A DNA stretch of 64,000 nt from Candidatus Geohabitans tengchongensis (GTDB lineage Bacteria; Sysuimicrobiota; Sysuimicrobiia; Sysuimicrobiales; Humicultoraceae): positions 30,972 to 94,971 of the forward strand of contig JAVKIH010000006.1 in assembly GCA_031459625.1 (NCBI GenBank). The letters are read 5' to 3'. Shown here piece after piece: positions 2,276 to 59,354 of this stretch (position 1 is its first letter; each line of letters opens with the position of its first letter). The notes beneath the pieces are model-generated. The model was not told the origin of the DNA. It did no database searches and saw only the letters and a program-made list of their open reading frames with translations. Made by a program: the position numbers and the translations under genes.

Positions 2276-2746
2276 ATGGCTCAGGTGCGCGTGGAGACTG
2301 AGGACCGCCTGCAGGCGCAGGTGCGCCTGGCTCAGGAAGACCGGTACCGGTTCAGCGTGGCCATGGACCACCCGGCCTGGCGGCTCACCGTGGACGAAGC
2401 CCCACCCCTCGGTACCGGGGCCGGCCCCAACCCGGCTCGCCCTGTGGCGACGGCCGTAGGTCACTGCCTGGCCAGTAGCCTCCAGCACTGCCTGGAGCGG
2501 GCCCGGGTCGAGGGAGCCCGGCTGGCCGTTACGGTCGATGTCGACATCCGCCGGAACGCGCGGGGGCGGTGGCGGATTGGCCGCATCCTGGCGGGGCTGG
2601 ACATCAGCGGGGTATCCCCCGCGCAGCGGGCAGCGGTGGAGCGCTGCCGCCATCTATTCGAAGAGTTCTGCATCGTGACGGCGAGCGTCCGCCAGGGGAT
2701 TCCGGTGGACGTGGCCGTCCGGGTGGATGGCGTCGAGATGGCATGA
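2276..2746 (+). CDS. OsmC-family protein
   Basis: DEAPPLGTGAGPNP, AVGHCLASSL, second Cys in FEEFCIVTASVRQGIPV; ATG 2276 after GGAGG. Confidence 0.85.
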   Translation: MAQVRVETEDRLQAQVRLAQEDRYRFSVAMDHPAWRLTVDEAPPLGTGAGPNPARPVATAVGHCLASSLQHCLERARVEGARLAVTVDVDIRRNARGRWRIGRILAGLDISGVSPAQRAAVERCRHLFEEFCIVTASVRQGIPVDVAVRVDGVEMA

Positions 2747-3162
2747 TCTCCACGGTCCTGCTCGCCACCGACGGATCGGTCCACGCCCGGCGGGCGACCC
2801 GGTTGGCCGCCGATGTGGCCCGACGGTACGATGCCCGCGTCGTCGTGCTGACGGCCTTCGAGCCTGTGCCGCACGACCTGGGGTCTCCCTACCTCGAGGA
2901 CCTCATGGCGAAGCGCACGGCGGCGGCCGAGGCGGTGGCCCGCGAGGCGGCGGGAATCCTGGAGGAGGCCGGGGTGGCCCACGAGGTGGAGGTCCTGGAG
3001 GGGCCCCCGGTCGACGCCATCCTCCGAGTCGCCCATGCCCGCGGGTGCGACCTCATCGTCATGGGCTCGCGGGGACTCGGCCCGCTGCGGGCCGCCCTCC
3101 TAGGGTCCGTGAGCCAGCGGGTGGCGGCGGAGGCTCCCTGCCCGGTCCTCATCGTGCGCTGA
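2743..3162 (+). CDS. Universal stress protein (UspA family)
   Basis: VLLATDGS; DLIVMGSRG...LLGSVSQRV...CPVLIVR; ATGA overlap with upstream gene. Confidence 0.93.
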   Translation: MISTVLLATDGSVHARRATRLAADVARRYDARVVVLTAFEPVPHDLGSPYLEDLMAKRTAAAEAVAREAAGILEEAGVAHEVEVLEGPPVDAILRVAHARGCDLIVMGSRGLGPLRAALLGSVSQRVAAEAPCPVLIVR

Positions 3163-5233: not shown

Positions 5234-5323
5234 TGGCGGAGGGGGTGGGATTTGAACCCACAAGGGCCGCGGGGCCCGGCGGTTTTCGAGACCGCTCCGT
5301 TACCGGGTTCCGGACACCCCTCC
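5234..5323 (-). tRNA. tRNA-Ser (anticodon CGA)
   Basis: GGAGGGG/CCCCTCC acceptor stem, GCGGT-CTCGAAA-ACCGC anticodon arm, long variable arm, GGTTCAAATCC T-loop, encoded CCA; upstream extended -10 TGCTATACT (5349-5357). Confidence 0.95.
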
Positions 5324-8464: not shown

Positions 8465-9297
8465 GCGCGGACTCCCGCGACGATCATCTCCAGGACCTCA
8501 TCCTCGGTGGTTGCCGCCACCGGGCGGGTGCCGACGTGGCGACCCTGCTTGAGCACCGTGATGCGGTCGCCGATCTGGAAGATCTCCTGCAGGCGGTGGC
8601 TGATGAAGATGATCCCCACCCCCTGGTCGCGCAGGCCGCGCACCACCTCCAGCACCTCGCGCGTGGCCGCCGGGGAGAGGTTGGCCGTGGGCTCGTCGAG
8701 GATGAGCACCCGCGGCTCGAAGGAGAGGGCGCGGGCGATGGCCACGCTCTGGCGTCGTCCGCCGGAGAGGGTGGCCACCTCGGCGCGCACCGAGGAGACC
8801 TCCACCCGCAGGCGGCGCAGCACCGCCTCGGCCCGCCGGTCCATGGTGGCGCGGTCCACGAAGGGTCCGCGCCGCGGCCAGCGGCCCAGCCAGATGTTCT
8901 GGGCGACGTCCATGTTGTCGCAGAGCGCGAAGTCCTGGTAGACCATCTCGATGCCCCGCGCCCGCGCCGCGGCGGGACCGTCGAAGCGCACCGGCCGCCC
9001 GTCGAAGAGGATCTCGCCGCTGTCCGCCTGGTAGACGCCGGTGAGGATCTTCATCAGGGTGGACTTGCCGGCGGCGTTGTCGCCCACCAGCCCCAGGACC
9101 TCCCCGGGGAAGAGCGTCAGGTCCACGTCGCGCAGCGCCTGCACCGCGCCGAAGCGCTTGCTGATGCGGCGCATCTCCACCAGCGGCGCGGGGGCGGTCG
9201 CCGCCGTCGCGGGCGCAGGGGCGAACGCAGCGGTCACGATCGGGTCGTCGGCCTCGACCGGCGGGGGCCCGTCCCGCACCGGGCGTGCACGCGGCAC
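8461..9297 (-). CDS. Sugar ABC transporter ATP-binding protein (single NBD)
   Basis: GDNAAGKSTL, LSGGRRQ, ILDEPTA, ISH. Confidence 0.92.
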   Translation of the reverse strand: MPRARPVRDGPPPVEADDPIVTAAFAPAPATAATAPAPLVEMRRISKRFGAVQALRDVDLTLFPGEVLGLVGDNAAGKSTLMKILTGVYQADSGEILFDGRPVRFDGPAAARARGIEMVYQDFALCDNMDVAQNIWLGRWPRRGPFVDRATMDRRAEAVLRRLRVEVSSVRAEVATLSGGRRQSVAIARALSFEPRVLILDEPTANLSPAATREVLEVVRGLRDQGVGIIFISHRLQEIFQIGDRITVLKQGRHVGTRPVAATTEDEVLEMIVAGVRA

Positions 9298-9319
9298 GGG
9301 CGGGCCCCGCCGCCATCCC

Positions 9320-10285
9320 TCACTTCTGGAGGAACCGGTCGACGTTCTCCCGGGTGACGATGTCCACGCCGGTGTTGTAGAAGGTCTGGGCCGGCTTCAT
9401 CTTCTTGACCACGATGTCGTTGAGCAGCTCGATGGACCGCACGCCCATCTGGTAGGGACGCTGCCCCACGAGCCCGGAGACGAACCCCTCCTTCACCAGC
9501 CGCAGCTCCGGCTCCAGGGTGTCGAAGGAGACGACGGTGAAGCGTCCCGCCTTGATGTCCGCTTCCTTCTTCTTCACGGCGTTCTTGTACGCCTCAGGGG
9601 CGAAGAGCGGCCACCCGCCCACCATGACGATGGCGGTGAGGTTGGGGTTGGCCGTGATCATCTGCTCCACCAGCTGCACGGCCCGGTTGATGTCGTCGTT
9701 GCTGGGGAAGGGCGAGCCGCTGACCTCCCGGTACTTGCTGGTGTCGGTGACGACGCTCTTGAACCCCTTGATGCGCTGGTTCAGGTTCACCGCTCCCAGG
9801 CCCCCGGTGATGATGCCGTAGGTGGCGCCGTTGGGGGCGAAGCGCAGGAAGAGCCGGCCGAGCTCCTTGCCGGCGGCCTCGTTGTCCGTCCCCACGAAGG
9901 CCAGCCGGCCGGACTCCGGCGCCGCGTCCGAGTCGAAGGTGATGACCGGGATCCCGCCGGCCATCGCCTTCTTGATCACGGGTACGACGCTCTTGCCGTC
10001 CACCGGCGAGATGGCCAGCCCGGAGACCTTCCGGGCCACCAGCGCCTCCAGCACGCGGATCTGCGGGGCGATCTCCGTCTGCTCCGGCCCCGTGAACTCG
10101 CAGGTGACGTTCAGGCGCTTGGCTGCCTCCATGCAGCCGTCGCGCACCTGGTTGAAGAACGGGTTGTTGATCGCCTTGGGGACGACGGCGAAGACGGGCC
10201 GAGCCGCCCCCTCGACCGGATGGAGTCCCGCCAGGCTCCCCAGGAGGACCCCGACGAGCAGGACGCGCAGCCAGATGGTTCGCAT
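9320..10285 (-). CDS. Sugar ABC transporter substrate-binding protein
   Basis: Signal peptide; VPKAINNPFF, TFDSD, VGTDN, GQRPYQMG. Confidence 0.92.
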   Translation of the reverse strand: MRTIWLRVLLVGVLLGSLAGLHPVEGAARPVFAVVPKAINNPFFNQVRDGCMEAAKRLNVTCEFTGPEQTEIAPQIRVLEALVARKVSGLAISPVDGKSVVPVIKKAMAGGIPVITFDSDAAPESGRLAFVGTDNEAAGKELGRLFLRFAPNGATYGIITGGLGAVNLNQRIKGFKSVVTDTSKYREVSGSPFPSNDDINRAVQLVEQMITANPNLTAIVMVGGWPLFAPEAYKNAVKKKEADIKAGRFTVVSFDTLEPELRLVKEGFVSGLVGQRPYQMGVRSIELLNDIVVKKMKPAQTFYNTGVDIVTRENVDRFLQK

Positions 10286-10362
10286 ACGTCCACCCCCTTT
10301 TGCGACTCATGCCTGCCACACCGTGTCGTGCTGTCGTCTCACCTCCCCTCCGGCGTCTGGGC

Positions 10363-11427
10363 TCAGCGGCCCTCGACCGCTCCGGGCGCCGCGCCGGCGG
10401 GAGCCGCGGCCGCCTGCGCCGCCGCCGCCACCAGGCGCAGGCGCACCCGGTCGAGCAGCACCGCCACGATGATGGTGGCACCGATGACCACCTGCTGCCA
10501 GAAGGCCGGGACCCCCATCAGCACCATGCCGTTCTGCAGCACCCCGATCAACGCCGCGCCGATGACCAGCCCCAGGATCGACCCCCGTCCCCCCAGCAGG
10601 CTCACTCCGCCGATGACCACGGCGGCGATGACCCCCAGCTCCATCCCCTGGCCCAGGGTGGCGTCGCCCACGGAGAGGCGGGCCGCCAGCAGGATCCCGG
10701 TGAGGGCGGCCAGGCCGCCGCTGGCGACGTAGGCGGTGAGCTTCACCCGGTCGACGTCGATACCGGCGACGCGGGCCGCGTCCTCGTTGCCGCCCACGGC
10801 ATAGAGGTCGTAGCCGAAGGGCGTGCGGGTGGTGACGATCCAGCCCACCAGCACCACCACCGCCATGTAGATCACGGGCGCGGGCACGGGGCCGACGAAG
10901 CCGGCGCCCAGCGCCACGAAGAGGTCGGCCTGCGGTCCCAGTTCGGTGATGGGGAAGCCCCGCGTGATCACCAGGGCGAGCCCGCCGGCCACGGAGAGCA
11001 TGCCCAGCGTGGGGATGAGCGGCGTCATCCTGGCCTTCGTCACCAGCAGGCCGTTCGCCAGCCCCACCCCCACGCCGGCGGCGGTGCCGGCGACCATGGC
11101 CAGCAGCAGGGGCTGGCCCAGGCTGAGGAGCTTGGTGGCCACCACCCCGCCCAGGCTGACCACCGAGCCCACAGAGAGGTCGATCCCCCCGCGCCCGGTG
11201 AGGATCACCAGGGCCTCGCCCACCCCGACGGCGGCGATGAACGAGAAGTTGCGGGCGATCTGGAAGAGGTTGTCGGTCTGCAGGAAACGGGGCGCCCGCA
11301 GGGTGATGAGCGCCATGAGCAGGACCAGTGCGGCCAGGATGGCCAGCTCGTAGGAAAGCTCCAGCCGGCGGGCCTCCTGCGTCGCGGCCAGCGGTTCGGT
11401 GGACTGCGTCGCCGGCGTCTCAGCCAT
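10363..11427 (-). CDS. Sugar ABC transporter permease (RbsC/XylH type)
   Basis: GIDLSVGS, YAVGGNEDAARVAGI, IAAVVIGG. Confidence 0.92.
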   Translation of the reverse strand: MAETPATQSTEPLAATQEARRLELSYELAILAALVLLMALITLRAPRFLQTDNLFQIARNFSFIAAVGVGEALVILTGRGGIDLSVGSVVSLGGVVATKLLSLGQPLLLAMVAGTAAGVGVGLANGLLVTKARMTPLIPTLGMLSVAGGLALVITRGFPITELGPQADLFVALGAGFVGPVPAPVIYMAVVVLVGWIVTTRTPFGYDLYAVGGNEDAARVAGIDVDRVKLTAYVASGGLAALTGILLAARLSVGDATLGQGMELGVIAAVVIGGVSLLGGRGSILGLVIGAALIGVLQNGMVLMGVPAFWQQVVIGATIIVAVLLDRVRLRLVAAAAQAAAAPAGAAPGAVEGR

Positions 11428-11542
11428 GGTGCATGTGCGGGCGCGGGGTAGTCTTCGACGTCTCTCCGCGGTGCCCTCCACTCCGGCCGGCGGTCAATGT
11501 CGAAGTCGGTGTGGCCGGCGCCCCCGCAAAGCCGGCCGTGCA

Positions 11543-11571
11543 TTGACAGCCCCCGCCTGCCCTTCTACACT
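11543..11571 (+). promoter_or_regulatory. sigma70 promoter TTGACA-17 nt-TACACT driving the riboswitch operon
   Basis: Consensus -35 at 11543-11548, -10 at 11566-11571, 17-nt spacer, about 20 nt upstream of the aptamer. Confidence 0.85.
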
Positions 11572-11590
11572 TCATGGTAAATCGGCACGC

Positions 11591-11637
11591 GGCGATGAGG
11601 CTCGCCGATAACCGCCTTCACGGCTGATAGCCTCTAC
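11591..11637 (+). ncRNA. Fluoride riboswitch (crcB motif) aptamer
   Basis: GGCGATGAGGCTCGCC-GATAACC-GCC-TTCAC-GGCTGATAGCCTCTAC: P1 GGCGA/TCGCC, pseudoknot GAGGC/GCCTC, conserved GCTGAT...CTAC. Confidence 0.92.
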
Positions 11638-11658
11638 CCTCGCGGGTAGGGGCTTTTT
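11629..11658 (+). terminator. Intrinsic terminator (riboswitch expression platform)
   Basis: AGCCTCTACCC-TCGC-GGGTAGGGGCT 11-bp stem followed by a T tract; its 5' arm is the pseudoknot strand, so the two folds are mutually exclusive. Confidence 0.88.
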
Positions 11659-11719
11659 CGCTGGCGCGGACCCTGCCCGGCGCAGGGGTCGCGCCAGTTG
11701 CCGTTTTCGGGAGAGGGGC

Positions 11720-12892
11720 ATGACGGACGCCTGGACTGCCACGGTCCTGGGGCTGCTGATCTTCCTGGCCACCATCGCCTCGGTGGAGCTCGGCATCTCC
11801 GTCGCGCTGGTCGAGATCCTGCTGGGGGTCCTGGGCGGCAACCTCCTCGGCCTGCACACTACCCCGTGGGTCGACTACCTGGCCGGCTTTGGCGGGATCG
11901 TCCTCACCTTCCTCGCCGGAGCCGAAGTCGACACGGACGTCCTGCGCGAGCAGCTCGGGCCGAGCCTCCTCATCGGCGGCCTCTCCTTCCTCCTGCCATT
12001 CGCCGGCGCCTGGGCCGTGGCGCAGTGGGGGCTGCACTGGACGCCCGAGGCCAGCCGGATTGCCGGCGTAGCCCTCTCCACCACCTCTCTGGCGGTGGTC
12101 TACGCCGTGCTGGTCGAGACCGGTCTCACCCACACGGCGCTGGGCAAGCTCCTCATGGCCAGCACCTTCGTCACCGACTTCGGCACCGCCGCCGCCCTCA
12201 GTGTCCTCTTCGTCACGCCGACGGTCTGGATGGCAGGGTTCGTGGGTGTGGCGGTGGCCATCGTGCTGATCATGCCGCGCCTGCAGCCCTGGATCTTCAG
12301 GCGCTACGGCGGCCGCATCATCGAGGCGGAGATCAAGGGCGCCTTTGCCGCCCTGCTGGCGCTCATGTACCTGGGGCAGCGGTCCGACAGCCATGCCGTC
12401 CTGCCGGCCTTCGTCCTGGGTCTGGCCTTCTCCCGCATCTTCGCCACGCACCCGGACACGCAGCGCCGCTTCCGGGTGGTGGCCTTCGCCATGCTCACGC
12501 CCTTCTTCTTTATCAAGGCCGGACTGAACGTGCAGCTCACCGCCGTTGCCGCCAGCCTGAGGACCCTGGGACTCCTCTTCGCGGTCAAGGTGGCGCTGAA
12601 GTTCGCCGGCGTGCTGCCGGCGGCGCGGCGCTCCGCTCCCGTCGGCGCCGTCTACCTCACCCTGTTGATGAGCACCGGCCTGACCTTCGGGACGATCTCC
12701 TCACTGTACGGCCTGCAGGCCGGCATCCTCGACCGGACCCAGTTCTCCCTCCTGGTGACGACGGTGATCGCCACCGCGGTCGTCCCCACGCTGGTCGCCC
12801 AGCGCTGGTTCTCGCCGTCGGCCGGCGGCGCTGCCGCGGGGGAGTCGGCAGCGGGGGTCCTGGTCCCGGCCGCGGCGGAAGGGGACGAGTAG
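11720..12892 (+). CDS. CPA2-family cation:proton antiporter (membrane domain only)
   Basis: About 12-13 hydrophobic segments; LTFLAGAE, STTSLAVV, FVTDFG, PFFFIKAG; GGAGAGG RBS. Confidence 0.88.
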   Translation: MTDAWTATVLGLLIFLATIASVELGISVALVEILLGVLGGNLLGLHTTPWVDYLAGFGGIVLTFLAGAEVDTDVLREQLGPSLLIGGLSFLLPFAGAWAVAQWGLHWTPEASRIAGVALSTTSLAVVYAVLVETGLTHTALGKLLMASTFVTDFGTAAALSVLFVTPTVWMAGFVGVAVAIVLIMPRLQPWIFRRYGGRIIEAEIKGAFAALLALMYLGQRSDSHAVLPAFVLGLAFSRIFATHPDTQRRFRVVAFAMLTPFFFIKAGLNVQLTAVAASLRTLGLLFAVKVALKFAGVLPAARRSAPVGAVYLTLLMSTGLTFGTISSLYGLQAGILDRTQFSLLVTTVIATAVVPTLVAQRWFSPSAGGAAAGESAAGVLVPAAAEGDE

Positions 12893-12918
12893 AGGGCGCA
12901 GGCGGGGGCGGAGCGGTC

Positions 12919-14454
12919 ATGGGCGTCCACAGCATCCTCTTCCTCCGGCCGGAGCAGCGGGCCGCCGCGGAGGACGCGGAGGCCCCGGACTGCTTCCGCG
13001 ACCTGCACCTCGATCAGGTGGTCGAGGCCGTCACCGCTGGCCGGAGCGAGTACCGGCTCCAGGGTTTCTTCCACACCCCGCTGCCCGACCTGGAGAGCAT
13101 CGCGTACCGGCACGAGGTCTTCCGGGACCTGGAAAGCACGGCCCTGGAGGCGGTGGTGCGCACCTTTGCCGACCGGATGCGCGCGGTGCGGGGGCAGCTG
13201 GCGCGGGCCGCCAAGCTCCGCTATCCCCTGCAGCAGGAGCGCTGGTTCCTGGAGGCGGTCGCCACGTACCTCGATGCGGTCGGAGATCTCTGCCGGGCGC
13301 TCGGCGGCCTCGACCTGCGGTCGCGCGGTTTCCAGGACCTGCGGGCGTATCTCGCCGGGTACGCCGGGTCGCCCGGGTTTACCGCGCTCGCCGCCGAGAC
13401 CGCCCGGCTCCGCCAGGACCTGGCAGGCGTCACCTACTCCCTGCACATCCACGGCAACCGCATCCGCGTCGCCCGGTACGCGGGAGAGGGGGACTATGCG
13501 GCGGATGTGGAGGCTACCTTTCAGCGGTTCCGGCGGGGCCCAACGAAGGACAACCGGGTCGACATCCGCGACTGGCCGGAGATGAACCACGTCGAGGCCG
13601 CAGTTCTGGAGCGCGTGGCCCTGCTCCACCCCGAGGTCTTCGGCGCCCTCCACCGCTACTGCGAGGGCTACCGGGACTTCCTGGACCGCGTGGTCGCCGA
13701 CTTCGACCGGGAGGTCCAATTCTACCTGGCTTACCTGGAGCATTGCCGCCGCTTCTCGGCGGCAGGGTTGCGCTTCTGCTATCCCGACGTGTCCGACCGC
13801 TCCAAGGCGATCGCGGCGCGCGACACCTACGACCTGGCCTTGGCTGACCGGCTCGTCCGCGAGGGACGGCCGGTGGTGTGCAACGACTTCGCCCTCCGGG
13901 GACCCGAGCGCATCATGGTCGTCACCGGCCCCAACCAGGGCGGCAAGACTACCTTCGCCCGGACCGTCGGCCAGCTGCACTACCTGGCCAGCCTGGGGTG
14001 CCCGGTGCCCGGGACGGCGGCCCGCCTCTTCCTGTGCGACCGCCTCTTCACCCACTTCGAGCGGGAAGAGCGGGTCGAGAACCTGCGGGGCAAGCTCCAG
14101 GACGACCTGCTCCGGTTGCGCGAGATCCTGTCGCGCGCCACGCCCCGCAGCCTGGTCATCGTGAACGAGGCCTTCACCTCGACCAGCCTGCGGGATGCCC
14201 GGTTCCTGGGCCGGCGGGTGCTCGAGCGGTTCCTGGCGCTCGACCTGCTGGGGGTCTGGGTGACCTTCGTCGACGAGCTGGCCGCCCTCGGAGACCAGAC
14301 GGTGAGCATGGTGAGCACGGTCGATCCCGCCAACCCCACCCGGCGGACGTTCAAGATCGTGCGCCGCCCGGCGGACGGGCGCGCCTACGCGGCGGCCATC
14401 GCCGAGCAGTACGGTTTGAGCTACGAACGCCTGAAGGAGCGCCTGGCCCGGTGA
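12919..14454 (+). CDS. MutS-related ATPase A (domain V only, no mismatch-binding domain)
   Basis: DLHLDQVV, YRHEVFRDL, VCNDF, VTGPNQGGKTT, FTHFEREE, GKLQDDL, NEAFTST. Confidence 0.88.
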   Translation: MGVHSILFLRPEQRAAAEDAEAPDCFRDLHLDQVVEAVTAGRSEYRLQGFFHTPLPDLESIAYRHEVFRDLESTALEAVVRTFADRMRAVRGQLARAAKLRYPLQQERWFLEAVATYLDAVGDLCRALGGLDLRSRGFQDLRAYLAGYAGSPGFTALAAETARLRQDLAGVTYSLHIHGNRIRVARYAGEGDYAADVEATFQRFRRGPTKDNRVDIRDWPEMNHVEAAVLERVALLHPEVFGALHRYCEGYRDFLDRVVADFDREVQFYLAYLEHCRRFSAAGLRFCYPDVSDRSKAIAARDTYDLALADRLVREGRPVVCNDFALRGPERIMVVTGPNQGGKTTFARTVGQLHYLASLGCPVPGTAARLFLCDRLFTHFEREERVENLRGKLQDDLLRLREILSRATPRSLVIVNEAFTSTSLRDARFLGRRVLERFLALDLLGVWVTFVDELAALGDQTVSMVSTVDPANPTRRTFKIVRRPADGRAYAAAIAEQYGLSYERLKERLAR

Positions 14455-15983
14455 ACGTCCGCCTGCTGCACCCGGACGGGGACGTCGGCTGGACCCGCGA
14501 GGTGCCACCGCACGCGGCAGACCTGGCGCAGGACCTCGGGCTGGAGACGCTTTGGGAGACGATGGCCGGCGGCAACGCCTTCCTCGCCGAGGTGGCGCGC
14601 TCGGTGATGCTGGCGAGCCTGACCGACCCCGAGGCGATCACCTACCGGCAGCGGGTCCTCCAGGACTGCCTGGCCCATCCGGCGGTGGTCAGGCAGCTCT
14701 ACGCGGTGGCGCTGGAAGCGATCACCGGTGAACGGAAGGTCTACCGGAGCGCCTTCTTCCGCTACCCCGCCGGTATCCTGCACGGGGCCCTCGAGGTGAT
14801 GCAGCTGTTCCTGCGCCAGCTCAGGCAGCTGCGCGCCATCGCCGAGGCCCATGCCGACGAGTTCGCTTCGGAGGGTTTTCGGGACCTCTTCGCCACCTTC
14901 AAGCGCGACCTGAGCGAGGACTACCTGCAGCGGGTCGCCGGCCACCTGCGACAGCTCCAGTTCCGCCATGGCGTGTTCGTCAGCGCGCGGCTCGGGCCGG
15001 GCAACAAGGGGCGGGACTATACGCTGCGCCGGCCCCCTACCCACCGGGGCGGGTGGCGGCAGTGGGTCCCGGGCTTCGACCGCGCTGCCGCGTACACCGT
15101 CGTCGTCCCCGACCGGGACGAGAGCGGACTGCGCGCCCTCGCGGACCTACGGGACCGGGGTCTCAACCTGGCCGCCAACGTCCTGGCCCAGGCGGCCGAC
15201 CACATCCTGGGGTTCTTCACGACCCTGCGGGAGGCCCTGGCCTTCTACCTCGGGTGCCTGACCCTGTGGGAGCGGCTCGTCGCGAAGGGAGAGCCGGTGT
15301 GCTTTCCCGAGCCGCTCCCGCCCGGCCGACACCGGTTCTCCTGCCATGGCCTCTACGACGTGGCTCTGAGCCTGCGCCTGGAGCGCCGCGTGGTCGGCAA
15401 CGACGTGGACGCGGACGACGTGCCCCTGGTCGTGATCACCGGAGCCAACCAGGGCGGCAAGTCCACGTTCCTGCGCAGCGTCGGTCTGGCGCACCTCATG
15501 ATGCAGTGCGGGATGTTCGTCGGTGCCGAGGCTTTCCGGGCCAGCCTCTGCGAGAGGCTCTTCACCCACTACCGTCGGGAGGAAGATCCCGCCATGCAGC
15601 GGGGGAAGTGGGAGGAGGAGCTGGACCGAATGCGGACCATCGTCGGCCGGTTGACCCCGCACTCCCTCGTGCTCTTCAACGAGTCCTTCGCCGCCACCAA
15701 CGAACGGGAGGGGGCGGAGATCGCCGGCGGGATCGTCCGTGCCCTGGTGGAAGCGGGCGTTAGGGTGTTCTATGTGACCCACTCCTACGAGCTGGCCCAC
15801 GGGTTCACTGAGAGGTGCCCCGGCGGCGTCCTCTTCCTGCGGGCCCACCGCGAGCCCGACGGCCACCGGACCTTCAGGCTGGTCCCGGGGGAACCGCTGC
15901 CGACCAGCTACGGCGAGGACCTCTACCGCCAGATCTTCGGGGAAGTCGGCGACGTGGCACCCACCGGCGCCCGAGGGGGCTGA
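14451..15983 (+). CDS. MutS-related ATPase B (paralog of A)
   Basis: QDLGLETL, YRQRVLQDCL, VGNDV, ITGANQGGKSTFLRS, FTHYRREED, NESFAAT, VTH; GTGA overlap with A. Confidence 0.88.
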   Translation: MNVRLLHPDGDVGWTREVPPHAADLAQDLGLETLWETMAGGNAFLAEVARSVMLASLTDPEAITYRQRVLQDCLAHPAVVRQLYAVALEAITGERKVYRSAFFRYPAGILHGALEVMQLFLRQLRQLRAIAEAHADEFASEGFRDLFATFKRDLSEDYLQRVAGHLRQLQFRHGVFVSARLGPGNKGRDYTLRRPPTHRGGWRQWVPGFDRAAAYTVVVPDRDESGLRALADLRDRGLNLAANVLAQAADHILGFFTTLREALAFYLGCLTLWERLVAKGEPVCFPEPLPPGRHRFSCHGLYDVALSLRLERRVVGNDVDADDVPLVVITGANQGGKSTFLRSVGLAHLMMQCGMFVGAEAFRASLCERLFTHYRREEDPAMQRGKWEEELDRMRTIVGRLTPHSLVLFNESFAATNEREGAEIAGGIVRALVEAGVRVFYVTHSYELAHGFTERCPGGVLFLRAHREPDGHRTFRLVPGEPLPTSYGEDLYRQIFGEVGDVAPTGARGG

Positions 15984-16041
15984 GGCGGAGGTCCCCCGGG
16001 ATCGTCCGGCGGGCGTGGCGGCCCCGGGCCGATGGCCGGGC

Positions 16042-17190
16042 TTAACGCGGCAGCGGCGGGAGCGGCGGCAGGCGCTCCGGGCGGGAGGCGCGGACCCGGA
16101 TGAGGTAGGCCTCCAGCCAGCCGCGCGCCCGGTCCGGGTGCGTCACCGCCCAGAGGACCTGTTCGTGGTCCAGCCCGTTCACCCGGTCGGCCGCCGCCCG
16201 GATGGCGTCGATGGAGTTGCGCACCGCCGTCTCCGGCGGGAGGCGCTCCGGGTTGACGTCGATGCCGAAGTGCTCCCGGTACCCGTGCAGCTTCAGCACA
16301 TAGAGCGCCGCCTCCAGCTGCTCCGGGGCCACGACGCCCACGTCCAGGTCCTGGTCGTAGTTCCCCAGCGGCTGGCTGTTCCAGTGGGAGTGGGCCAGGC
16401 GCCCGTACTCGCACACCAGGCTGAAGGCGTAGGGCAGGTCCTCATAGCCCATCAGCATGTGGCCCGTCTCCGGGTTGAGGGCCAGCAGCGCGTGACCCTC
16501 GGCGAGCAGCCGCCGGTTCTCCGGCGCCCGCAGCCGCTCCTCCACCCGGGCCGCCAGCAGGAGCCCCTCCGCCGTCGAGCCGTAGAGGATGCGCCCGCGC
16601 GGCTCGTAGGGCTTGGGTTCGAAGGCGATGCGCACGCCGGGGACGGCGTCCATGGCTTCGGCCAGGCCCTCAGCGAAGCGCTCCCGCATGGCCGCCAGGT
16701 CCACCCCGAAGGGGTTCTCGTAGCCGTCGATCCCGGGCCAGACGATGGCGAAGTCGGTGTCCAGCTCGCGGTTCAGGCGCAGGGCGGCGATGGTCCGCTG
16801 CAGCGCGCGCTCCCGGGCCTCCGGCAGCGGGGAGGAGAGCGAGCCGAACTCGAACTCCCGGTCGGCGAATAGCCCCGGGACGATGGTGAGCAGCCGGATG
16901 CCGGTGTCGCGGGTGAACTGCCGCCAGAGGTCGAGCGTGGCCTCGCTGATCTCGTTGGGGTAGTGGGCCTCGACCGCCTCCACGCCGTAGTCCCGCAGCG
17001 CCGCGACGCGCTCCAATCGGGCGGGCAGGTCCACCGCGGGCCCGTAGGGCTCGTGGAAGCGGCTGGCCATGGGGGAGAAGTACCAGACCCCCACCGAGAA
17101 GCGGGGGACCAGCTCGAAGGTACGGAGGTGACGCAGCAGCTCCTCGGGGCTGCGCCGGGTACGCTGGGGACGCAGGTCACGCAGTGGCAT
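16042..17190 (-). CDS. Xylose isomerase-like TIM-barrel sugar isomerase
   Basis: FSVGVWYF, WPGIDGY, EPKPYEPRG, NPETGH, HWNSQ, YDQDL metal-site motifs; xylB nearby. Confidence 0.75.
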   Translation of the reverse strand: MPLRDLRPQRTRRSPEELLRHLRTFELVPRFSVGVWYFSPMASRFHEPYGPAVDLPARLERVAALRDYGVEAVEAHYPNEISEATLDLWRQFTRDTGIRLLTIVPGLFADREFEFGSLSSPLPEARERALQRTIAALRLNRELDTDFAIVWPGIDGYENPFGVDLAAMRERFAEGLAEAMDAVPGVRIAFEPKPYEPRGRILYGSTAEGLLLAARVEERLRAPENRRLLAEGHALLALNPETGHMLMGYEDLPYAFSLVCEYGRLAHSHWNSQPLGNYDQDLDVGVVAPEQLEAALYVLKLHGYREHFGIDVNPERLPPETAVRNSIDAIRAAADRVNGLDHEQVLWAVTHPDRARGWLEAYLIRVRASRPERLPPLPPLPR

Positions 17191-59278: not shown

Positions 59279-59354
59279 TGGCGGGCCCGGAGGGAATCGA
59301 ACCCCCGACCAGAGGCTTAGGAGTCCCCTGCTCTATCCACTGAGCTACGGGCCC
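59279..59354 (-). tRNA. tRNA-Arg (anticodon CCT)
   Basis: GGGCCCG acceptor stem, TAGCTCAGTGGATAGAGC D-arm, CTCCTAA loop, GGTTCGATTCC, encoded CCA; upstream TGCTAGAGT extended -10. Confidence 0.95.

Follow-up and report, generated by a model that had tools for sequence, protein, structure and literature searches.

A fluoride riboswitch operon joining a CPA2-type antiporter to the MutS4A/B ATPases in Candidatus Geohabitans tengchongensis

Introduction

The 64,000-nucleotide (nt) stretch of Candidatus Geohabitans tengchongensis DNA analysed here (contig JAVKIH010000006.1; hereafter the window, in whose positions the coordinates are given) contains an operon in which a promoter, a fluoride riboswitch and a terminator are followed by the genes of a CPA2-type cation/proton antiporter, MutS4A and MutS4B. 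The parts of the locus are known and their arrangement is new, and as a three-gene unit the operon does not constitute a new system: a preliminary description had presented it as undescribed, but MutS4A/B were named in 2007 and mutS and ion-transporter genes were linked to the switch in 2010. What is new is that, in two classes, the antiporter and the fluoride exporter Fluc are rarely found in one genome, and that 12 antiporters form a clade without Fluc. What still makes the locus valuable is that this clade may take the place of Fluc, which can be tested. The locus provides a compact test set from a genome with neither known exporter. The absence of Fluc and CLC-F, already claimed in the preliminary description, extends to the whole assembly (94.2% complete). 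There, neither PF02537 (Fluc) nor PF00654 (CLC, with the GNNLI/GREGT/GEVTP motifs of CLC-F) gave a match, in searches that were positive in 11/14 and 12/14 control genomes, respectively. The reading preferred here, which we give roughly an even chance, is that the antiporter is an electroneutral cation/H+ exchanger limiting the trapping of fluoride, and that MutS4A/B is an asymmetric clamp ATPase working independently of it.

The fluoride riboswitch and its regulon were reportedly described by Baker in 2012. Work on the crcB motif found it upstream of mutS and of K+ or Cl- transport genes, with overlapping terminators (Weinberg et al. 2010, PMC2864571); further background is given in PMC7266159, which cites Baker 2012, and in PMC5533749. 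Two families of bacterial fluoride exporters have been described, Fluc and CLC-F, and among switch-linked classes Na+/H+ antiporters rank next in frequency (Stockbridge and Wackett 2024, PMC11139923, which also cites Baker 2012). Lists of genes behind fluoride switches have included antiporters and mutS since 2010-2012, with functions that are still putative in the papers searched. Literature searches, whose reach excluded most subscription papers, found no report of fluoride export by a CPA or of a link between MutS4 and fluoride. Were the antiporter to move fluoride and rescue a delta-crcB strain, it would define a new family of exporters and be a CPA that carries an anion; were it to protect by pH change alone, it would show how Fluc-less bacteria tolerate fluoride. 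Either outcome bears on the engineering of fluoride-tolerant hosts for organofluorine degradation.

Distribution of the antiporter and Fluc

The class to which this genome belongs was surveyed through 80 genomes, each at least 80% complete. The antiporter is carried by 22 of them (partial or split in 3), with an RF01734 match directly upstream in all 22, and Fluc is present in 1 of these carriers. Among the 39 switch-bearing genomes, 21 have the antiporter only, 5 have Fluc only (one of them the unpublished G068), 1 has both and 12 have neither (p 0.046), and in genus g26 the antiporter occurs in four genomes, Fluc in three and both in none. Over all 80 genomes there is no such exclusion (p 0.47), because Fluc is rare (6/80) and 39 genomes, within G051-G129, have neither switch, this antiporter, Fluc nor CLC. 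For these 39 genomes, either another route or a true absence may be considered; an exporter has been reported in over 85% of surveyed bacteria (PMC11139923). As for CLC, the 18 loci of class relatives have GREGP/GHGVP-type motifs where these were found, and the CLC-F signature in none.

A second class, that of the Limnocylindria genome G008, gave a similar picture. In 151 sampled genomes the antiporter was found in 19, Fluc in 44 and both in 1, whereas 5.5 genomes with both would be expected (p 0.009, one-sided Fisher test). Dropping the seed genome, chosen in the knowledge that it lacked Fluc, gives p 0.012, and dropping the unpublished G211 and G222 as well gives 0.018. The switch lies directly upstream of 16/18 antiporter loci and 11/22 Fluc loci in this class, and CLC was above the cut-off in 1/18 antiporter carriers. 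Both sets of exclusion tests treat related genomes as independent, and most of the genomes are incomplete assemblies. In this line, a tree of 43 full-length antiporters (partial, split and unpublished rows left out) places the protein studied here in a clade of 12 rows with support 100/100, which spans two phyla and whose members' genomes contain Fluc in no case.

The relation is reversed across phyla. In 50 MutS4 genomes, a sample biased to gene-rich fluoride islands, Fluc was present in 15/21 antiporter carriers and in 13/29 non-carriers, and in seven of the carriers the antiporter and Fluc genes run in the same direction no more than 900 nt apart, being immediate neighbours in G019 and G024. 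Such co-occurrence in islands does not exclude export, given that G007 keeps Fluc and a true CLC-F in one island. The anti-correlation with crcB that the preliminary description had proposed to look for thus holds in part, for the antiporter alone and in two classes. Altogether, few genomes of these two classes contain the antiporter and Fluc together, and the evidence for replacement is mixed. Since the antiporter there tends to appear where Fluc is missing, it likely covers part of the protective job of Fluc, and it might do so by exporting fluoride.

Family, fold and residues of the antiporter

The antiporter belongs to a large and conserved subfamily, as all 8000 of 8000 scored candidates were at E 1e-20 or better. 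Its assignment to CPA2, as made in the preliminary description, stands at the level of motifs, but membership in the KefB/KefC-like group does not follow, because the protein reaches 81.5 bits on TIGR00932 against a cut-off of 238.3. Whereas a search of the PDB with the single sequence found nothing, a profile search recovered NapA and KefC. The structural model (pLDDT 84.9) has a NapA-like fold, with a TM-score of 0.77 to PDB 5bz2.

The motif rules published for the CPA superfamily define the CPA2 clade by Asp at position 7, Lys/Arg at position 8 and no Glu at position 5 (Masrati et al. 2018, PMC6181914). The antiporter, whose motifs read T121-T122-S123-L124, T152-D153, K294 and MSTGLTFG, shows this pattern: D153 and K294 are invariant in 26 sequences, and S148 occupies position 5. 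Electrogenic members of the NhaA/NapA type combine the Lys at position 8 with Asp/Glu at position 6, where T152 is found here and Thr, Asn or Cys in relatives. Under these rules, the antiporter would be a non-electrogenic CPA2. The helix-crossover positions are likewise without an acid, with S123 in place of NhaA D133 and T322 in place of NapA E333, and the family conserves a second invariant lysine, Lys290.

Compared with the NapA of Thermus thermophilus (PDB 4bwz, 5bz2), the antiporter keeps the fold, the equivalents of T126/S127 (T122/S123), the ion-binding Asp, the Lys of transmembrane helix 10 and the lack of Glu at position 5, at an identity of about 20%. On the other hand, it differs in the electrogenic Asp, in the extra Lys290, in transmembrane helix 11 (TM11), where an invariant STGLTFG replaces the APRGEVG of NapA, and in lying almost always behind a fluoride switch. 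The Gly/Thr state of TM11 is shared with E. coli NhaA, whose Asp133 is Ser in the antiporter family. Fold and sequence are unrelated to those of Fluc and CLC-F, with which the antiporter shares the same riboswitch-controlled slot, and the CLC-F signatures are all absent from it. As a separate observation, a close homolog (P0036) is a 536-aa fusion of antiporter and USP, which suggests that USP is the usual regulatory partner of the antiporter.

The MutS4A/B pair

The two ATPases, 30% identical to each other, have PF00488 as the only domain above its cut-off; they fall far under the cut-offs of MutS1 and MutS2 and contain no MutS-I, MutS-II or SMR domain. MutS4A/B were defined as adjacent paralogs of the ATPase domain in which the stop of A overlaps the start of B, their function being unstudied (Lin, Nei and Ma 2007, PMC2190696). 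By its gene architecture the present pair fits this definition, with adjacent paralogs of about 510 aa, the MutS ATPase domain as the only recognisable one, the same overlap and a patchy occurrence across phyla and archaea and on plasmids. A mycobacterial plasmid pair, 47% identical to this one, has the same overlap. What differs here is the co-transcription predicted with an antiporter and the link to fluoride, which is absent from the available passages of PMC2190696 and mentioned 0 times in those of Kim et al. 2017 (PMC5742357). In this regard, the mycobacterial island of the latter work contains enolase and a hydrogenase-like complex, as fluoride islands do, and a similar region of Mycobacterium branderi has four fluoride switches, one of them directly before mutS4A. 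Within this plasmid region, another feature is a fluoride switch that precedes a PE/PPE/WXG100 gene cluster (L197, 8096-11865).

A search for mutS4A relatives confirmed 546 among 600 candidate stretches, of which the best 80 loci were kept and counted. MutS4B follows mutS4A in 76/80 (3 of the 4 misses are contig ends), and the overlap is 4 nt in 61/70 measured pairs. With a covariance model built from 25 switches, whose counts are a lower bound, a fluoride switch was found in at least 66/80 loci, and in at least 40 of them it has the sense orientation and precedes mutS4A by no more than 450 nt. Whole-genome searches of 50/79 MutS4 genomes, chosen for long flanks, found the switch in 50/50 (47 above the cut-off), as compared with 4/14 control genomes. 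The genes next to mutS4A include a dynamin-like GTPase (34 of the 80 loci), enolase (20), MFS (19), DUF190 (16), a hydrogenase-like subunit (14), USP (13), Fluc (13) and pyrophosphatase (13). The dynamin-like GTPase, the commonest of these neighbours (L003-L082), is sometimes fused to DUF6062.

The MutS4A model (pLDDT 89.9) matches best, over the whole chain, the MutS2 core (Z 27.9, root-mean-square deviation 3.8 over 377 residues), and reaches a Z of 13.8 or less with the nucleotide-binding domains of ABC transporters. The lever-clamp-ATPase architecture of MutS2 (PDB 9kce, 7vuf, 7qv3) is thus retained over the whole chain at Z 24-28, and the top Foldseek matches are MutS/MSH clamps. For the N-terminal half of MutS4A, the ESM Atlas returned unnamed clusters and a weak MutS_III lead at 0.81. 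In comparison with MutS2, the pair lacks the C-terminal extension (KOW/SMR region), has Gly-Lys instead of the Ser-Thr-Phe motif and is likely a heterodimer, as the preliminary description had already considered. Walker B is an invariant Asn-Glu in both subunits, and the H-loop His is invariantly replaced by Phe in MutS4A (89 sequences) but invariant in MutS4B (76 sequences), whereas the MutS1- and MutS2-like proteins encoded by separate genes of this genome have Asp-Glu and His. The Phe in one subunit and the His in the other suggest an asymmetric heterodimer with one main catalytic site.

Separable modules of a fluoride-stress gene set

The preliminary description read the three genes as a self-contained system, with ATPases that might power or control the antiporter, and neither part of that proposal finds support in the wider record. 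In 11/80 loci the antiporter and mutS4A are no more than about 6 kb apart, and an intact antiporter immediately precedes mutS4A in 0/80; in one locus (L004) a truncated antiporter stands immediately 5' of mutS4A. The five closest antiporter homologs (71-73%) come from genomes without a mutS4A match, and the four of their loci that were mapped read switch-CPA-USP-MFS. In the second class, no MutS4 was found within about 4 kb of the antiporter in 18 fetched loci, the search being confined to that distance. The two modules are not associated among the 39 switch-bearing class genomes (p 0.52), and each is widespread without the other. One contig of a strain about 98% identical, from another study (run X5), has kept the switch and the antiporter, with window positions 13202-16041 replaced by 1502 other letters. 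That run also contains low-depth contigs with the intact genes, and the entire operon is retained in a soil strain that is 96% identical.

Despite this separability, the linkage of the antiporter and MutS4 is non-random. Six of the 13 MutS4-bearing class relatives have the order switch-CPA-USP-mutS4A-mutS4B (four mapped, two by coordinates), and this USP-containing operon is seen in G117, G125, G127, G128, L048 and an Enterobacter plasmid, where it adjoins crcB, gpmA, eno and a DHH-family pyrophosphatase-like gene. The operon studied here is this unit without the USP, and the antiporter and the MutS4 pair are modules, separable from each other, of a gene set already known for fluoride stress. 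A USP gene does exist in the window at about 2743-3159, and its product is 40-42% identical, over the full length, to the operon USPs of relatives; it was not taken as the missing partner. The five-part unit is found on enterobacterial plasmids, with 45 records matching mutS4A and 38 matching the antiporter. On one of these plasmids (L198, NZ_CP032915.1), mutS4B is annotated as two pieces and the unit stands beside a crcB operon and arsenic-resistance genes.

Proposed mechanism and alternatives

According to the mechanism established for this class of riboswitch, the binding of fluoride and Mg2+ would lock the pseudoknot and prevent the terminator from forming, so that the three genes are transcribed. 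The antiporter, whose activity is predicted from its residues, would then swap one cation for one proton electroneutrally, a 1:1 stoichiometry suggested because Asp153 and Lys294 are kept and no acid is found at the electrogenic position. A reduced pH gradient would in turn lessen the accumulation of fluoride, which enters as the weak acid HF, and could act as a partial stand-in for export. Since fluoride is trapped as a weak acid, such a lowering would protect with or without Fluc, which would account for both distribution patterns. In support of this view, riboswitch-linked antiporters have been assigned to pH homeostasis, and fluoride-acclimated yeast tolerates lower pH (PMC11139923). MutS4A/B is in turn proposed to be a 1:1 heterodimer of the MutS2 lever-clamp-ATPase core, with neither mismatch-reading nor SMR domain and probably one fully catalytic site, which most likely grips, independently of the antiporter, a substrate that fluoride stress has stalled, either nucleic acid or ribonucleoprotein. 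Several points weigh against these proposals. The direction in which protons would move is a prediction. That the antiporter and Fluc nearly exclude each other in two classes is explained by a true exporter no less well than by a pH workaround. DNA binding is not strongly favoured by the clamp regions, which are no more than weakly basic (mean net charge +0.4 in A and +4.3 in B). Finally, the RNA-labelled run X1 assembles into one 18.5-kb DNA-like contig that spans oppositely oriented operons, which says nothing on transcription.

A first alternative is that the antiporter subfamily exports fluoride itself, by F-/H+ exchange or cation-F- co-export. It would then be the third family of exporters in bacteria, taking the place of Fluc and CLC-F in some lineages, and MutS4 would be an accessory. 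We regard this alternative as unlikely, though worth a direct test, and give the same tentative standing to its narrower form, in which above all the TTSL/TD/S[HQ]AVLP clade that includes this protein would be a NapA-fold elevator repurposed for fluoride and replacing both exporters in whole lineages. The exclusion and the frequent upstream switch of the second class, with its near lack of CLC, the pattern among the switch-bearing genomes of the first, the alternation in genus g26 and the 12-row clade without Fluc all point in this direction, as do the acid-free S123 and T322 and the invariant Lys290; moreover, known exporters are usually mutually exclusive, both occurring in about 3% (PMC11139923). 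Yet most cross-phylum carriers also have Fluc, in seven of them close by in the same orientation, and the exclusion disappears over the 80 class genomes, in addition to being measured on non-independent kin and incomplete assemblies. The protein also keeps the invariant cation-site Asp153 and the Lys, and E. coli NhaA has the same Gly/Thr in TM11. A three-protein machine, with the ATPase heterodimer binding the antiporter and energising, gating or chaperoning it, appears far less probable still. It would explain the single transcription unit seen here, the USP-containing operon of class relatives and other phyla and the truncated antiporter before mutS4A in L004, but CPA proteins are secondary transporters, the ATPases have a MutS clamp fold and not that of transporter-type nucleotide-binding domains, which are obligately linked to a membrane partner, and the lack of association and the strain that kept the antiporter while most of the pair was replaced speak for independence. 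A complex prediction of the antiporter (residues 1-368) with the two ATPase domains, N-terminal halves omitted, scored 0.00 in 2/2 runs and counts neither way.

For the pair alone, two other functions have to be weighed against a clamp acting on stalled substrates. A role in the recombination or repair of DNA, with induction as a response to DNA damage caused by fluoride stress, is somewhat unlikely, though it draws on a published experiment: M. smegmatis expressing the MutS4 operon showed more and longer homologous recombination (PMC5742357), the mutS link to the switch was read as DNA repair in PMC2864571, and the top structural matches are MutS/MSH clamps. That experiment is one heterologous gain-of-function test in which, within the available passages, fluoride goes unmentioned even though the content of the island matches fluoride islands; in addition, MutS4A/B lacks a mismatch-recognition domain, and the genome has its own MutS1- and MutS2-like genes. 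More doubtful is a reactivase that frees enzymes and NTPases trapped by metal-fluoride, such as enolase, pyrophosphatase or the dynamin-like GTPase, instead of clamping nucleic acid. The fluoride-sensitive enzymes and NTPases that surround mutS4A would be suitable clients, the clamps are weakly basic, the reactivase ATPase model NF052383 KamC matches the ATPase domain, and the Asp-to-Asn change in Walker B could lessen MgFx trapping of the pair itself. The KamC match, at 41-69 bits, is however below the cut-off of 300 and does not extend beyond the shared ATPase domain, and the literature search found no paper on KamC; besides, the dynamin and pyrophosphatase of islands have no match in the present genome, and the whole-chain fold is that of the MutS2 core.

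Riboswitch and layout of the locus

The leader is supported as a fluoride ON-switch by its architecture, from which fluoride binding and induction are predicted (Table 1). The preliminary description had read it correctly in all parts. The sigma70-type promoter is the sole one in 5.6 kb (shuffle mean 0.0), and similar hexamers precede the switches of many relatives. The aptamer is complete, spanning model positions 1-64 of RF01734 above the gathering threshold of 34 bits, and the 3' strand of its pseudoknot sits within the 5' arm of the terminator, an overlap seen in 26/29 leaders inspected, the other 3 not being parsed by the pattern. In 25 aligned riboswitches, 98.7% of the cells are paired, against 38-56% in slid controls, with 4 compensatory pairs; 2 of these fall in the pseudoknot, which is 100% paired. 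The locus thus shares with the RF01734 regulon the aptamer above gathering, the overlapping terminator and the downstream mutS-like and cation-transporter genes. It differs in a GAGG/CCUC pseudoknot (most copies have GGAG/CUCC), in an assembly without Fluc or CLC and in an antiporter joined to MutS4 without the usual USP. The three co-oriented genes are spaced exactly as first described, with a gap of 26 nt between the antiporter and mutS4A and a GTGA overlap (14451-14454) between the ATPase genes, in agreement with a co-regulated operon.

Table 1. Features of the fluoride riboswitch operon, in window positions
Feature	Position	Strand	Remarks
Sigma70-type promoter, TTGACA-17-TACACT	11543-11571	+	10/12 consensus matches
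Fluoride riboswitch aptamer (crcB motif, RF01734)	11582-11643	+	43.3 bits, E 1e-8
Aptamer P1	11591-11606	+	
Pseudoknot	11597-11601 with 11630-11634	+	
Intrinsic terminator, 11-bp stem and U tract (TTTTT)	11629-11659 (stem 11629-11654)	+	predicted ON-switch expression platform
Second stable hairpin, between terminator and ribosome-binding site	11660-11697	+	z -3.3 for 11660-11725
CPA2-type cation/proton antiporter, 390 aa, PF00999	11720-12892	+	fluoride-riboswitch-linked subfamily
MutS4A-type ATPase, 511 aa, PF00488	12919-14454	+	MutS2-core fold; Walker B Asn-Glu; H-loop His replaced by Phe
MutS4B-type ATPase, 510 aa, PF00488	14451-15983	+	Walker B Asn-Glu; H-loop intact; overlaps mutS4A by GTGA

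The operon is flanked by sugar-catabolism genes on the opposite strand. The flanking isomerase is directly followed by the kinase in 2/3 relatives having it, so positions 8465-16040 constitute an insertion relative to those two. No long repeats were found at the ends of this stretch, and a recent foreign origin of the operon was rejected on composition (GC 70-71% and GC3 91-94%, genome GC 73%). The sequencing runs that contain the stretch are mostly hot-spring metagenomes, some of them possibly the source of this DNA. A soil strain (run X6) keeps the fluoride operon without most of the neighbouring isomerase gene (window 16035-16806). Two tRNA genes lie on the minus strand of the window, at 5237-5323 and 59282-59354.

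Elsewhere in the genome, an MFS ortholog (69%) of the gene that follows the antiporter in relatives is found on contig C19 (32328-33491, minus strand; L190), without a switch and behind a low-GC stretch at the contig end, and constitutes another candidate exporter. A second, weaker fluoride switch is present on contig C25 (22818-22888, minus strand; L002/L189), which at 31.7 bits falls below the gathering threshold. It has a terminator-like hairpin with a U tract and precedes two small proteins with no Pfam match above the cut-off; in 12 or more class relatives, homologs of the second of these follow switches together with DUF6062 and MFS genes.

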